Shown in pieces: positions 6,887 through 46,039 of a stretch of 64,000 nucleotides of DNA. Made by a program: the position numbers and the translations under genes. How positions within the stretch are numbered: position 1 is the first letter of the stretch; each line of letters begins with the position of its first letter. Under the pieces are notes generated by a model. It did no database searches. It saw only the letters and a program-made list of their open reading frames with translations, and was not told the origin of the DNA. The stretch comes from Eledone cirrhosa (lineage: Eukaryota). Location of the stretch: the NCBI GenBank assembly GCA_964016885.1, contig OZ024753.1, positions 13,144,001 through 13,208,000 on the forward strand, given 5' to 3'.

Positions 6887-7876
6887 ATGCATCAGATTAC
6901 AAGTATTGAAGAAGGCCAACACAGTGAAAGCTTGAAAATAAAAGACACGATATTTTTCAGGTTCCTGAAATATTTTTTAGAACATAATTATATGAGATTA
7001 AGTGAAATGATATCTTTACTGAAATCACACACGTTCAAAGCATTGGGTTTGCTAGCTATTTATATTGTGGCCTTTATATATTTGATTCTAAACCCTATTT
7101 GCCTCATTGTTAATTTAACAACCTTAAAAGGTATACCTGATGCCAACATATTTATGTATGTCTACATTACATTTTGCTGGTGTATGATGTCTGTCCTATG
7201 TTTAATGAAATATTTCAAAGAGCCTCATTTCAAGGACATAATTGAAATATTCTCCAAAATTGAAATTGAAGAGAAAGATGGAAAACTGTACAGTTTCATA
7301 TATTCATATAAGTCACTTTCTATATTAACAGCTGTGTATAGTATTTCTATCATAATTACAGAGCTCATAATACCTATTTTTAGTAAAGACAGTGATCTGT
7401 TGGATTTTCTAGTATTTCAAATGACGATGGATTATAAGTACCTCATAGTAATTTTAAAATTTACACTACAAATTCTTTCCACTGTACCGCTGTGGATTGA
7501 TCTGTATATAAGCTTTATACTTCAGCTTAATCTTACTCATGAGTTTAACAAACTGGCCAAGGAGGCTGAAGAGTGCGTAAAGGTAATGCAATCCCCCAAT
7601 TCGGATGCTATCAAGAAATATGAAGAGATTAAAGAAATATGCAACAGACAAGACAAACTGAGTTCATCACTGAGATTATTAAATGATTCTTCGCAGTATA
7701 TTTTAGGATTTCTCGTATTTGGTAGTATTCTTAGTTGTTGTATTACAACTTACGGAATAATAAATAACTTATTACAAAATCATACGGATTCATACATTTA
7801 TGTATTAATTATGGCGTTCGGCTTCCTGTCTTACTGGATTACAATAATTGTGTTGGGCCTCCGTTTACATATATCG
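6887..7876 (+). CDS. Gustatory-receptor-like (GRL/7TMIC) exon, copy 1 (TM1-TM6, 330 codons, ends at splice donor)
   Basis: About six hydrophobic helices; GRL-like motifs LxxEFNKL, (H/Q)DKLxxxLxxLND and ILSCCITTY; ends GLRLHIS|GTAAGT in phase 0. Confidence 0.75.
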
Positions 7877-8254
7877 GTAAGTCTATATATAAATGTGTAT
7901 GTCACCCATATATTTATGTTTCTGCTGTGTTTGGCACCAGCCTGGCCTTTCTTAATATAATCTTTTCTTGTGCACTCCGGTTAAACAGATCGGTAAGTTA
8001 CATCTTCGTTTTACTTTTTTTACATTTTTAGTATGATGGATTGGCAGTGTCGGTAGAGCGCCAGACACCATGCTTTGTAGCATAGTGTTATGGCCCTTTA
8101 CGTTCTGAGTTGAAATCCCGCCGAGATTCACTTTGCTTTTCATCTTTACGGGGTGGATAAATAATGTACCTGTAATGCACTGTGGTTGATTTAATCGACT
8201 TTCCCTTCCCCCAAAATTGTCGGCCTCGTGCCTAAATCAGAGATTATTATTTCC

Positions 8255-9385
8255 ATTATTATTCTTATGGCGCATCATTACTGCTTCACTATTGTATTGA
8301 TAGGACTTTTCGTAATATATGTTGTATATATTTGTAAGTCGTGGGGTACTCTATATAATATATACAGTACCTACTAGTGCTATCTGTTGTATGCTGTATA
8401 TATTTGTAAGTCCTGTGGTACTCTACATAATATATATATACAGTACCTAGTAGTGCTATCTACTGTATGCTGTATATATTTGTAAGTCCTGTGGTACTCT
8501 ATATAATATATATACAGTACCTAGTAGTGCTATCTACAGTATGCTGTATATATTTGTAAGTCCTGTGATACTCTATATAATATATATACAGGACCTAGTA
8601 GTGCTATCTTTTGTATGCTGTATATATTTGTAAGTCGTGGGGTACTCTATATAATATATATACAGTACCTAGTAGTGCTATCTTCTGTATGCTGTATATA
8701 TTTGTAAGTCCCGTGGTACTCTATATATTATATATACAGTACCTAGTAGTGCTATCTTCTGTATGCTGTATATATTTGTAAGTCCTGTGGTACTCTATAT
8801 AATATATATACAGTACCTAGTAGTGCTATCTAATGTATGCTGTATATATTTGTAAGTCCTGTGGTACTCTATATAATATATATACAGTACCTAGTAGTGC
8901 TATCTACTGTATGCTGTATATATTTGTAAGTCCTGGGTTACTCTATATAATATATATACACTACCTAGTAGTGCTATCTACTGTATGCTGTATATATTTG
9001 TAAGTCCTGTGGTACTCTATATAATATATATACAGTACCTAGTAGTGCTATCTAATGTATGCTGTATATATTTGTAAGACCTGGGGTTTTGGCTATGTAT
9101 TTGTCTGTGTGTTTTTATCATTCCTAGAACACCTATTATTATAGGTATTGTTTCTGGTTTTATTTTTCACATTCAAGTTATTTCTATCTCTCGATCTTTA
9201 TATTTGGAGAGTTTCTCCCTTTCCTTGGAAGATATATTGTCGTCTGTTGGGATTGACACATCTATTAGAAGGCATTTCTTTTCTTTGTGGTTTTGACCAT
9301 AATATCTGGTCGGTTGACTTTGATCTCTATGTCTGTATGTATTGGCATATCCCAGAGAATTGTTGCTTTGTCATTCTCTGACACT
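8255..9385 (-). mobile_element. R4/Dong-like LINE 3' end (restriction-like endonuclease) with a 74-bp minisatellite (~10 units); paralogues 19425-21522 (~22), 41605-42296 (~7), 46655-47427 (~4)
   Basis: Minus-strand translation (best read in the 19.4-21.5 kb copy): ATILWDMPIHTD..ANRPDIMV..LVDVSIP..EKLSKY..IPIIIGVLG..IQKIALLGTAHIL.KVL. The period is 74 bp (8761 to 8835). Confidence 0.8.
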
Positions 9386-9699
9386 GGGGTAATTGCTGGC
9401 TTTATGCGAGGTTAACTTTGCCTCACATCCTTACGGGGTCGATAAAATAAAGTACCAGTAATACATTGTATTAATTGCTTGCCTTGTGCCAAAAGTAAAA
9501 ATAATAATTATTATTATTATTACACATGTGGTAATTTACTGACGGGTGAGTCTTTATCCAAACTTGTTTACTTACACCTACAATGGTGGGCCGAAATTCT
9601 TATTCGTTTTAATAATTTCTAAAACAACGAAACGTGATATTGTGGTTCTGTTAATATTTTGAAAGATTCAAAATGACATGTTCAAATGTTGAAAAGAGA

Positions 9700-42954: not shown

Positions 42955-43245
42955 TACTGCACTCCGTCGGTCACCACGACGAGTGTTCCAGTTGACTCGA
43001 TGGACAGAACAATCTGCTCGTGTAATTAACGTGCAAGTGGCTGAGAAATTTCAGGGAGATTCAGCGGGACACAGATTGTGACATGGCTGGCCCTTCGAAT
43101 TAGAGATACAACCCATTTTTGCCAGCTGAGTGCACTAGAGCAACGGGAAATAAAGTATCTTGCTCAAGGGCACAACGTACAGCCGAGAATCGAACTCGCG
43201 TCCTTATAGTTGTCAGCCGAGTATCCTAACCACAAAGCCACGCGA
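42955..43245 (-). mobile_element. Second tRNA-derived SINE family
   Basis: Minus strand TGGTTAGGATACTCGGC..GAGTTCGATTCTCGG (A/B boxes), then TTGTGCCCTTGAGCAAGATACTT. Confidence 0.75.
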
Positions 43246-45049
43246 CTTCAACATATAAATCTTCAATCGGGAAATAACTGAAGAATGGAAAGAGAATTCT
43301 TTCAAATAAGTGAAAAAAAAATAATGTGGGAGGAATTGAGGAAAGCTGAGATCACGAGACCCACTGAGTTTTATTAAGTTCAATTGTGAATTCTGCGACC
43401 CTTTCTTTCTGCTTAGATCTTCAGGTGGGACATTGTGGACTTTTGCTGGGTCTTTTCATGATATGTGGGCGTGAAAATGGTGTTTCAGGGAAGCGGTTAG
43501 CTATTGCATTTTCTTCTTCGGTTTTCTACAGATCAAATATTTTATTTATCGGCGACCCATTGAAATTAATAGTATTGATCAGCCATATCATGAAACCTAA
43601 TGTATGTGTGTGTGTGTGTGTGTGTGTGTGTGTGTGTGTGTGTGTGTGTGTGTGTGTGTGTGTGTGTGTGTGTGTGTGTGTGCGTGCGTGCGCGTGCGTG
43701 TGTGTGTGTGTGTGTGTGTGTGTGTGTGTGTGTGTGTGTGTGCGTGCGTGTGCGTGTGCGCGTGTACGTGTGCGTGTGCGTGTGTGTGTGTGTGCGCGCG
43801 CACACACTCACATATATATATATATATATATATATATATATATATTGTATAGAAGAGCTTCTACAAGACTAGAACTGTTATATCCTGCTATGTATTGAGT
43901 ACCTTACGTACTGTGGTTACCTCCTATTCAACCCGGAATAACTTATATATATACATATATATATACCAGTCATGTCACTCTTGAGTGCTACTGGTAACAT
44001 GTAAACCAGTACAACCTGTCGCATGGTCGGGTCGTCGGCGACTAAACGGGCAACCACACCAAGTTTACTTGGTGAGGAGGGGGATTTTGGACACCCTGCA
44101 GAACAAGAAAAAAAACCTTACAAAGGGCGGAAGAACTCATAAGAGTCAACGGCCATCCAAAAATGAGTAAATATGTATATACACATGTACATATGTGTAT
44201 GTATATGCGTGTGTATATGTCTGGGGTGTCAGGGAGGGGCATGTACCTCTGTAGGGAGAGCTAGGCATGCCCTTTTCATGACAGCTCGTCCAGCATTGGG
44301 TCCCACCTGACACTCAGCTCTCACCTTTGGCCCCAAGAAGCTGTAGAATGCGACAGCAGCCACAAACCGGTAAACCACCTTGGGTGGCAGGCCGAATCAT
44401 GTTGAGGGTAGCCGGACGGGTCTGAAATCCCCCGGTGAGTTAGATAGCGGATGCCTGGATAGCGGAAGTCTGGACCCGGCGGAGTGAGTGGAGGAGGACA
44501 ACATCGTCCCAACGGTCACAAAGGCGACGATAGCAAGCGTGTGGAGAGCTAGGGCAGGGCAAGGCACTACAGACGTCGTGGTCATCCACTGCAGCCAAGC
44601 AAGACCCTGGTCGCGACGGTTTCCGTACCACCGGATTCTGGCTTCTGCGGCCGAGTGAGTGGGACCGTCACTGTGCACTGGCCCTCCCACTATAAACGCC
44701 GCACAGGTTTCTTCTTTAGCGTCTACTCCCATATATGTGTATATATGCATGCATATGTATATATGTATATACATATACACATACATATGCATATATATAT
44801 GTATATACATGAATATATATGCATATACATATGTGCATATATATATGTATATGCATGTGTATACATGCAAATACATATATATATATGCATATGCATGTAT
44901 ATACTGTGTGTATCATCTGAATGAATATTATCTGATTACCTAACATCGATTACACAACTTATCAGGACTTTATCTAGTTTGTCAGCTTTAGCTTCTCGAA
45001 CGACTAGCAAACTCTTAAAGAAATACAGCTCGTCTCTCTGGTTTTCGAA

Positions 45050-46039
45050 ATGCATAAGATTACAAGTATTGAAGAAGGCCAACACACTGAAAGCTTGAAA
45101 ATAAGAGACACGATATATTTCAAGTTCCTGAAATATTTTTTAGAACATAATTATATGAGATTAAGTGAAATGATATCTTTACTGAAATCACACACGTTCA
45201 AAGCATTGTGTTTGCTAGCTATTTATATTGTGGTCTTTATATATTTGATTCTAAACCCTATTTGCCTCATTGTTAATTTAACAACCTTAAAAGGTATACC
45301 TGCTGCCAACATATTTATGTATGTCTACATTACATTATGCTGGTGTATAATTTCTGTCCTGTGTTTAATGAAATATTTCAAAAAACCCCAATTCAAGGAC
45401 ATAATTGAAATATTTTCAAAAATTGAAATTGAAGAGAAAGATGGAAAACTGTACAGTTTCATATATTCATATAAGTCACTTTGTATATTTGCAGCTGTGA
45501 ATAGTATTTCTATCATAATTATGGAAATCATAATACCTATTTTTAGTAAAGACAGTGATCTGTTGGATTTTCTAGTATTTCAAATGACGATGGATTATAA
45601 GTACCTCATGGTAATTTTAAAATTTACACTACAAATTCTTTCCACTGTACCGCTGATGATTGATCTGTATACAAGCTTTATACTTCAGCTTAATCTTACT
45701 CATGAGTTTAACAAACTGGCCAAGGAGGCTGAAGAGTACGTAAGGGTAATACAATCCCCCAATTCGGATGCTATCAAGAAATATGAAGAGATTAAAGAAA
45801 TATGTAACAGACATGACAAACTGAGTTCATCACTGAGATTATTAAATGATTCTTTGCAGTATATTGTAGGATATCTCGTATTTGGTAGTATTCTTAGTTG
45901 TTGTCTTACAACTTACGGAATAATAAATAACTTATTACAAAATCATACGGATTCATACAAGTATGTATTAGTTATGGCGTTCGGCTTCCTGTCTTACTGG
46001 AATACAATAATTGTGTTGGGCCTCCGTTTAAATATATCG
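45050..46039 (+). CDS. GRL/7TMIC exon, copy 4
   Basis: Intact 330-codon frame ending TCG|GTAAGT. Confidence 0.75.

Follow-up and report, generated by a model that had tools for sequence, protein, structure and literature searches.

Variable first exons of a GRL gene in the octopod Eledone cirrhosa and their likely shared set of 3′ exons

The closest described systems are GR loci of insects. In Drosophila Gr39a, tandem long exons that each encode six TM domains are alternatively spliced to three small exons for TM7 and the C-terminus, and the exons undergo gain, loss and pseudogenisation; purifying selection (omega about 0.2) acts on its 4-5 exons, which are old and have diverged (PMC2204066). 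The accessible parts of two further papers give 13 isoforms for Blattella germanica Gr60a-m (PMC6175461) and 30 long 5′ exons for Tribolium Gr214 (PMC6307266). The Eledone cirrhosa locus analysed here resembles Gr39a in its six-TM tandem long exons, its three small TM7/C-terminus exons and its exon gain, loss and pseudogenisation, but differs in having 12 young copies, a pN/pS of about 1.7-2 and introns that extend over 31-261 kb, and in belonging to a mollusc. With BgerGr60 and TcasGr214, as far as these are described, it shares many long first exons and three common short final exons, the insect loci being of similar or larger scale; these are, however, insect GRs, and we presume an independent origin of the octopod locus to be likely, having seen no sign of orthology. 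The design itself is known from insects (Gr39a, Gr28b, BgerGr60 and TcasGr214), and the Eledone case would show this variable/constant design in a mollusc; our searches of the literature turned up no GR with variable first exons and shared 3′ exons in molluscs, cephalopods included. The vertebrate clustered protocadherin and UGT1A loci also join variable first exons to constant exons over long introns, as the Eledone locus appears to do, but their proteins are unrelated.

In the consulted portions of the literature, GRLs outside arthropods are few, a chemosensory role is shown for none there (PMC6150509, PMC5850775, PMC11730519), and one GRL of a cnidarian functions in development (PMC5850775, PMC6150509). 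Octopus chemotactile receptors, according to the available part of PMC11526382, are nAChR-derived pentamers that expanded with positive selection on pocket residues; on that account they are like the Eledone locus in being a cephalopod receptor expansion with pocket-residue selection, but their fold is unrelated.

The window, a stretch of 64,000 nucleotides (C13:13,144,001-13,208,000), lies in the middle of a 262-kb array that holds 12 intact and 4 broken exon copies and continues far past both window ends. A sequence-only reading of the window had described four intact 990-nt exons, and all four were confirmed (w1-w4, Table 1): each begins with ATG, is stop-free and ends in phase 0 with TCG followed by the donor GTAAGT, an end found in 12/12 intact array copies. 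Pairwise identity of the four is 95-97% in nucleotides and 88-94% in amino acids; throughout the array, copies differ by 1.3-7%, the changes being in-frame and mostly missense and the insertions distinct.

Table 1. Coordinates of the exons and associated features (window positions unless a C13 position is given)
Feature	Position	Strand	Remarks
w1, variable first coding exon	6887..7876	+	330 aa, helices S0-S6 of GRL; phase-0 donor GTAAGT at 7877
Type B remnant (3′ end of second exon type) after w1	7877..7998	+	second GTAAGT donor after 7992
w2, variable first coding exon	17820..18809	+	Pfam 7tm_7 E 6e-8, above cut-off
w3, variable first coding exon	40233..41222	+	Pfam 7tm_7 E 1.5e-6, above cut-off
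Block of ~138 nt directly 5′ of w4 ATG	44912..45049	+	same block precedes w1, w2, w3
w4, variable first coding exon	45050..46039	+	modelled fold resembles insect OR/GR structures (Z 13.1-18.6)
Start of long intron towards three shared exons	46040..64000, runs out of window	+	no 3′ exon in stretch
Shared exon 2	C13:13,282,184-13,282,252 (69 nt), outside window	+	AG/GT flanks, phase 0
Shared exon 3	C13:13,302,335-13,302,424 (90 nt), outside window	+	AG/GT flanks, phase 0
Shared exon 4	C13:13,305,276-13,305,326, outside window	+	16 codons + stop, TYILVVIQT, phase 0

Behind each of w1-w4 stands a type B remnant, in which another GTAAGT donor occurs 116 nt past the first (18925, 41338 and 46155 for w2, w3 and w4); this second donor was rejected as an alternative coding end because it is out-of-frame and behind a stop. 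Spacers between the exons consist of tandem repeats, which make up 31% of the window, and of TE pieces, as had been noted; we read the latter from their ORFs as probably LINE, Penelope-like and SINE-like, and an RVT_1 match lies at 33586-35442. Conserved non-exon blocks of the repeat units (e.g. 15480-15991) were considered as hidden exons and discarded, since they contain stops and, in some copies, a 22-nt deletion; they showed no likeness to GRL C-termini.

Judged from profile matches and a structure model, the array exons code proteins of the GRL/7TMIC fold, as the sequence-only reading had proposed. Pfam 7tm_7 placed two of the four window exons above its curated cut-off and one just under it (E 2e-5), w1 being without a listed match, and the family profile matched DmGr64a (E 2.4e-10), then Gr43a, Orco and MhOR5. 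In the AlphaFold model of w4 (pLDDT 65, 8-sequence alignment), a short helical stretch at the N-terminus precedes six long helices, in keeping with the about six TM helices claimed per exon. Against 48,161 chains, its top eight matches were all insect OR/GR (Z 18.6-13.1, the next at Z 8.2), with an rmsd of 3.6-4.5 over 245-301 residues. In the Foldseek comparison that had been proposed for the 330-aa product, GR/OR structures also filled the top four rows, but the E-values were weak (0.07 and up, none at 0.001 or better); similarity to the 7TMIC fold is shown by the profile and structure matches together. Exon 4 carries TYILVVIQT, which agrees with TYhhhhhQF in T, Y, five hydrophobic residues and Q and has T in place of the final F, a substitution in the S7b motif that also occurs in Octopus homologs. 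The predicted product is a 399-aa channel subunit in up to 12 forms. In GRs, as stated in the accessible text of PMC12635824, S2-S6 surround the ligand pocket and S7b lines the pore.

Three small phase-0 exons lie 92-115 kb beyond w4, the last of them carrying the TM7 motif, and introns reaching to exon 2 would measure 130,307 nt from w1, 119,374 from w2, 96,961 from w3 and 92,144 from w4. Only one such exon 2/3/4 set of this subfamily is found in 464 kb, and the assembly is gap-free from the first array exon to exon 4. Exons 2 and 4 have single genome-wide matches, and exon 3 has one extra, broken copy on C3. Across the array span C13:13,020,164-13,282,183, which includes the whole window, neither blastn with the three real 3′ exons nor profile scans found any 3′ exon. 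The repeat units thus yielded no IL3/TM7 exon in these searches, as had been the outcome by eye, no copy was found to have private 3′ exons, and the suggested search of the downstream contig led to this single shared set. A 3′-exon profile built without the neighbouring genes recovered two of the three divergent exon-3 paralogs in these neighbours, and tblastn all three; a very divergent 3′ exon hidden in the array is unlikely on these searches. Moreover, a repeat fragment cuts short the last array exon before exon 2, which lacks a donor; whatever exon is spliced to exons 2-4 must therefore lie 31 kb or more from them. An E4-like stretch past exon 4 (C13:13,337,485), for which no exon 1 or 3 was found, apparently does not belong to this gene.

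Splicing of an array exon to this set was seen in one public run, X4, the kind of which is not on record and the sample of which differs from that of the assembly. A 1074-nt contig of this run (depth 8.55) joins the 3′ end of an array exon to exon 2 and the start of exon 3. The 31 nt of array-exon end in it match exactly one of 15 array donors, that of copy a08, which is 154,163 nt upstream of exon 2 and beyond all four window exons; a03, w2, a13 and a14, the most proximal intact copy, are each one base off. Since four copies are this close and X4 is another sample, the assignment to a08 could shift through allelic variation. Two further X4 pieces, which differ from each other in their overlap, fit a01 and a14 best and contain no junction. 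The junction contig lies only on exon 2 and did not surface over w4 although 465 of its letters precede exon 2, a puzzling absence for which filtered holes are a possible reason; X4 likewise gave no cover on window positions 45417-46168, holes from filtering carrying no proof of absence. A processed pseudogene is an unlikely source of the spliced contig, given the single genomic match of exon 2 and the DNA-like runs, which contain exon 2 unspliced. The idea that several variants share one C-terminus is thus supported by the single 3′ set and by one array exon/exon 2/exon 3 junction; this sole junction contig matches none of w1-w4 exactly.

Octopus relatives show a comparable arrangement. In O. 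sinensis LOC118764607, the first exons of X1/X2 and X3/X4 are 46% identical, and in LOC118764608 those of X1 and X3 are 49% identical, the C-termini being identical within each locus; these RefSeq isoforms are predictions, which presumably rest on RNA-seq. First exons of both loci and of O. bimaculoides LOC106880719 form one clade with those of the window (support 99 in a quick tree), and the C-terminal exons are near-identical to the Eledone ones. The Octopus loci are therefore like the window locus in GRL subfamily and C-terminal exons, with alternative first exons annotated in O. sinensis, but unlike it in the high age and divergence of their first exons, which share about 38% identity with those of the window and 46-49% among themselves; within these three loci, we found nothing closely related to the young 12-copy type.

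Among the array copies, mean dS is 0.035, and pN/pS is 1.71 (codon bootstrap 1.15-2.81). The ratio is highest in helices 2, 3, 4 and 6, with a pN of 0.12 in TM2 and EL3/TM6 vs 0.03 in IL2. Comparison of M2a with M1a gave an LRT of 100.6, and 29 sites are of high posterior, but tree-based selection tests are inflated by mosaicism among the copies, in which 35% of distant pairs of informative sites are incompatible, and a tree-free site count was not significant (variable 0-fold 117/631 vs 4-fold 14/99 columns, p 0.33). From these sequences we conclude that the copies carry an excess of amino-acid change, concentrated in the pocket helices. The open frame is kept in 12 of 14 type-A copies; all 12 frames stayed open in 0/2000 runs of a neutral simulation and in 3/2000 when the tree was scaled down to the synonymous rate, a comparison that is partly circular, as the intact copies were picked for being intact. 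The best explanation of the copies is recent growth of the array via tandem duplication of one exon type together with decay of two older types, and we consider both parts jointly as probable.

On these findings, the window most likely covers the central part of a single complex GRL (7TMIC) gene, whose long first exons are each likely joined, one per transcript, to the single three-exon set. In an ordinary four-exon gene, by contrast, only a14 would be used, and the upstream copies, including w1-w4, would be partial duplicates of recent origin in which decay has yet to set in. The youth of the copies, the 4 of 16 array exons already broken, the one-base distance of a14 from the junction sequence and the X4 piece that fits a14 would suit such a gene, but the junction has no exact match to this last copy and matches a08, the second X4 piece fits a01, 12 copies retain frames and donors contrary to what neutrality predicts, pN exceeds pS with a focus on pocket helices, and alternative first exons are annotated in O. 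sinensis; we thus regard it as very improbable. That the array is an assembly artefact, of uncollapsed haplotypes or errors, is hardly credible: segments can become duplicated when repeat-rich DNA is assembled from long reads, but the divergence of the copies, with their mostly missense in-frame changes and distinct insertions, argues against this, as do short-read DNA contigs with many variant letters on the exon and a summed depth much above that of exon 2, these runs being possibly of the assembly's own sample and depth not being copy number.

For the alternative-exon gene, we propose that each first exon would start transcription in or near its upstream block of about 138 nt, which is kept in 12/12 intact copies (17/138 alignment columns vary) and is a candidate 5′ UTR or core promoter. 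The exons could instead be mutually exclusive internal cassettes, Dscam-like, behind one common upstream non-coding exon and without start sites of their own, a model helped by the shortness of the common block for a promoter and by its several AG dinucleotides; since, however, the pyrimidine fraction before these AGs is at most 0.65 vs 0.76-0.82 at the three real acceptors, the block appears to be without a strong 3′ splice site, and we hold cassettes to be quite unlikely. With own start sites, the cap-proximal donor would join the exon 2 acceptor across 31-261 kb because the downstream exons have no strong acceptors. Isoforms would then differ in the ligand-pocket helices and keep the same pore helix, and subunits may assemble as homo- or heterotetramers via the shared S7. 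Diversifying selection on S2-S6 would retune ligand specificity, so that the products are likely chemoreceptors, a family of candidate chemical sensors that this one locus probably encodes; we infer both this chemosensory role and the splicing of each of w1-w4 themselves. The same alternative-exon gene might serve other ends, such as sensing of internal metabolites, temperature or light, or development or immunity. Roles of this kind are described for Gr28b, Gr43a and NvecGrl1 in the available parts of PMC6175461, PMC6150509 and PMC5850775, and the TM7 motif ends in T, not in the gate F, but fast copy gain and loss with excess pocket-helix change would be the pattern of an environment-facing receptor, and we rate a role other than external chemosensing as less likely than not.

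More speculatively, and with the odds somewhat against it, octopods may possess an undescribed insect-GR-type channel chemoreceptor repertoire, encoded by variable-exon/constant-exon loci of which the present one is an example and another may lie on C3, with isoforms chosen cell by cell and heterotetramers built on a shared pore. If true, a rapidly diversifying family of chemosensory GRLs would be described for the first time outside arthropods, with candidate receptors for olfaction or taste in cephalopods that would complement the chemotactile ones; a recently amplified locus of 12 isoforms with excess pocket-helix change offers named, clonable candidates for this part of octopod chemosensation. 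The named close homologs are all from Octopus, and LOC118764607, LOC118764608 and LOC106880719 stand in RefSeq as 'uncharacterized protein', with neither family name nor description; such receptors may be overlooked because the records of their Octopus relatives consist of 'uncharacterized' isoforms or of first-exon ORFs with no name.

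The window belongs to a real variable-exon/constant-exon gustatory-receptor-like (GRL, 7TMIC) locus in an octopod. Its four first exons (w1-w4) stand where the sequence-only reading had placed them, each 990 nt long, stop-free and in phase 0 from ATG to TCG/GTAAGT, with pairwise identities of 95-97% in nucleotides and 88-94% in amino acids. For Pfam 7tm_7, two of the four exceeded the cut-off, one fell just below it and one had no listed match, and a family profile search matched DmGr64a at E 2.4e-10. The chemoreceptor fold suspected earlier was borne out by an AlphaFold model of w4 (pLDDT 65), for which the best 8 of 48,161 chains were insect OR/GR structures (Z 18.6-13.1), after which Z fell to 8.2; Foldseek placed Gr43a and OR28 at the top, with weak E-values.

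The window spans C13:13,144,001-13,208,000 of the 3.0-Gb host genome; upon examination of 200 kb on either side of it, 16 related first exons were found on a single strand of the contig (C13:13,020,164-13,281,778), of a young intact-copy type (type A) and two older decayed types (B and C), and their named close homologs were Octopus proteins only. Using O. bimaculoides LOC106880719 as bait, we searched downstream for TM7 exons and found three small exons past the array with AG/GT flanks, which together with a first exon give a predicted product of 399 aa. Exons 2 and 4 each match the genome once, and exon 3 has one additional broken copy on another contig (C3:362,901,819, L078), which contains a stop and a 3-nt deletion and has lost its donor. 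As had been proposed, no TM7 exon was found in the repeat units: blastn and profile scans gave no sequence of exon 2, 3 or 4 type inside the array. In a sensitivity check on divergent paralogs of exon 3, which belong to stand-alone GRL genes nearby, tblastn recovered 3/3 and an independent profile 2/3. One N run interrupts the 464 kb, and it is beyond exon 4.

Features of the array, its surroundings and the Octopus isoforms
Feature	Position	Number, size or strand	Remarks
First exons w1-w4	window 6887-7876, 17820-18809, 40233-41222, 45050-46039	+	
Type A, intact		12; 990 nt long except for two of 981 nt	same donor in all
Type A, broken	within C13:13,020,164-13,281,778	2	
Type B		1	35% identical; contains stop
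Type C		1	32% identical; cut by repeat fragment, without donor
Type-B remnant behind donor	window 7877-7998, 18810-18931, 41223-41344, 46040-46161; also array copies a08, a13, a14 outside the window		
Exon 2	C13:13,282,184	69 nt	phase 0
Exon 3	C13:13,302,335	90 nt	phase 0
Exon 4	C13:13,305,276	51 nt	phase 0; TYILVVIQT, then stop
Divergent stand-alone GRL genes flanking array	C13:12,971,799; 12,994,265; 13,366,634		own exon-3-like sequence behind each
LINE reverse transcriptase ORF	window 33586-35442	-	Pfam RVT_1
Penelope-like ORF	window 54935-57428	+	reading of ORF; without family hit
O. sinensis LOC118764607			isoforms X1/X2 vs X3/X4
O. sinensis LOC118764608			isoforms X1 vs X3

None of the sequencing runs was recorded as RNA and three behave as DNA; in the fourth (X4; a single run at low depth, from a different sample than the assembly), one 1074-nt contig was placed on exon 2 only, and it is spliced sequence, since a type-A exon end precedes exon 2 and the start of exon 3 follows it. 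The 31 nt before exon 2 are exact to one of 15 array donors, that of a08, 154 kb upstream, and four copies, among them the most proximal intact copy a14, are one base off; if this assignment is right, the intron would skip all four window exons. Two more X4 pieces (depth 2.5 and 3.9) disagree in their overlap and fit best to copies a01 and a14, and the junction contig was absent when X4 was compared with w4. Of the predicted junctions to a common acceptor, one array exon joined to exon 2 was seen, and none from w1-w4. Independently of the Eledone cirrhosa genome, RefSeq isoforms of two adjacent O. sinensis loci have different first exons and identical C-termini. The alternative-exon design is very probable. 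In annotated isoforms of O. bimaculoides (X2) and O. sinensis (X2, X4; P0001, P0006, P0007), the initial 14 residues of exon 2 are missing, suggesting an internal acceptor in both species; an in-frame AG matching it is not present in this genome.

Mean dN across the 12 intact copies was 0.061 and mean dS 0.035, with dN > dS in 64/66 pairs, which are not independent, and pN/pS was 1.71 (codon bootstrap 1.15-2.81), or 2.05 (1.38-3.38) when transition-weighted. Our own codon-model fit gave an M0 omega of 2.1 and favoured M2a over M1a (LRT 100.6), a test inflated because the copies are mosaic; a plain count of variable 0-fold versus 4-fold columns was not significantly different (p 0.33). All 12 frames stayed open in 0/2000 runs of a neutral simulation and in 3/2000 on a shorter tree, the intact copies being pre-selected. 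By segment, with bounds placed by hand, pN was highest in EL3/TM6 (0.120) and TM2 (0.116), followed by TM3 (0.093) and TM4 (0.076); IL2 had the lowest value (0.026). In solved GRs, S2-S6 line the pocket and S7 forms the pore and contributes to the anchor (PMC12635824), so the pocket is encoded by the variable exon and the pore by the shared exons.

In our model, each first exon would have its own start site near a 138-nt block upstream of the ATG, common to all copies, and its donor would be joined long-range to the exon 2 acceptor because this block has weak acceptors only. Subunits may then form tetramers on a common S7, and the products presumably have a chemosensory role; external chemosensation is slightly favoured. 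Whether the locus supplies cephalopod chemoreceptors can be tested directly.

Drosophila Gr39a joins four large six-TM exons to three small ones (PMC2204066), and Blattella Gr60a-m (13; PMC6175461) and Tribolium Gr214 (30; PMC6307266) share this design. The octopod locus has the same design, but differs in phylum, intron length, younger copies and omega >1 (Gr39a about 0.2). In the literature searched, including PMC6150509, PMC11526382, PMC11682238, PMC11730519, PMC5850775 and PMC12635824, no such locus or GRL expansion was found for cephalopods or other molluscs; the design is known from insects and, within that literature, undescribed for molluscs.

On the minus strand at C3:69,455,600-69,540,000 (L083-L091) is a second, distinct candidate array, which belongs to another GRL subfamily. 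Of its five long first exons, a phase-0 donor was identified for four, and the match of the fifth extends to residue 317 of 350; downstream of all five there is only one exon-3-like (69,456,491) and one exon-4-like (69,455,694) sequence. Inverted copies stand on the plus strand at ~69,587,600, 69,603,500 and 69,617,200. Its assignment as a variable-exon/constant-exon array is tentative because of an internal 200-N gap (69,513,055) and because our search of this region found no exon 2. Nine more first-exon types (P0009, P0010 and P0012-P0015 from Logan; P0017-P0019), which form separate clusters at 50% identity, fall in the same clade as the first exons of the C13 array; arrays of greater age and diversity are therefore likely to exist in other genomes.

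Three stand-alone GRL genes flank the C13 array, which is thus part of a wider GRL cluster, and a broken type-A piece is dispersed at C13:13,927,474 (L018). In 7/12 intact copies, the 3' end of the decayed type-B exon, with its donor, follows directly on the copy's own donor. This arrangement suggests descent of the seven from one A-B fusion unit; the second donor is out of frame. A 17-kb satellite (C13:13,263,803-13,280,831; 587 copies of 29-bp units, 95% alike) separates the last intact exon from the truncated exon beside exon 2. Minisatellites of 74, 61 and 107 bp occur in the repeat units (window 8318-9083, 11709-12132, 14088-14707 and their copies), and their copy number differs among units, e.g. 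10, 23, 8 and 5 for the 74-mer.
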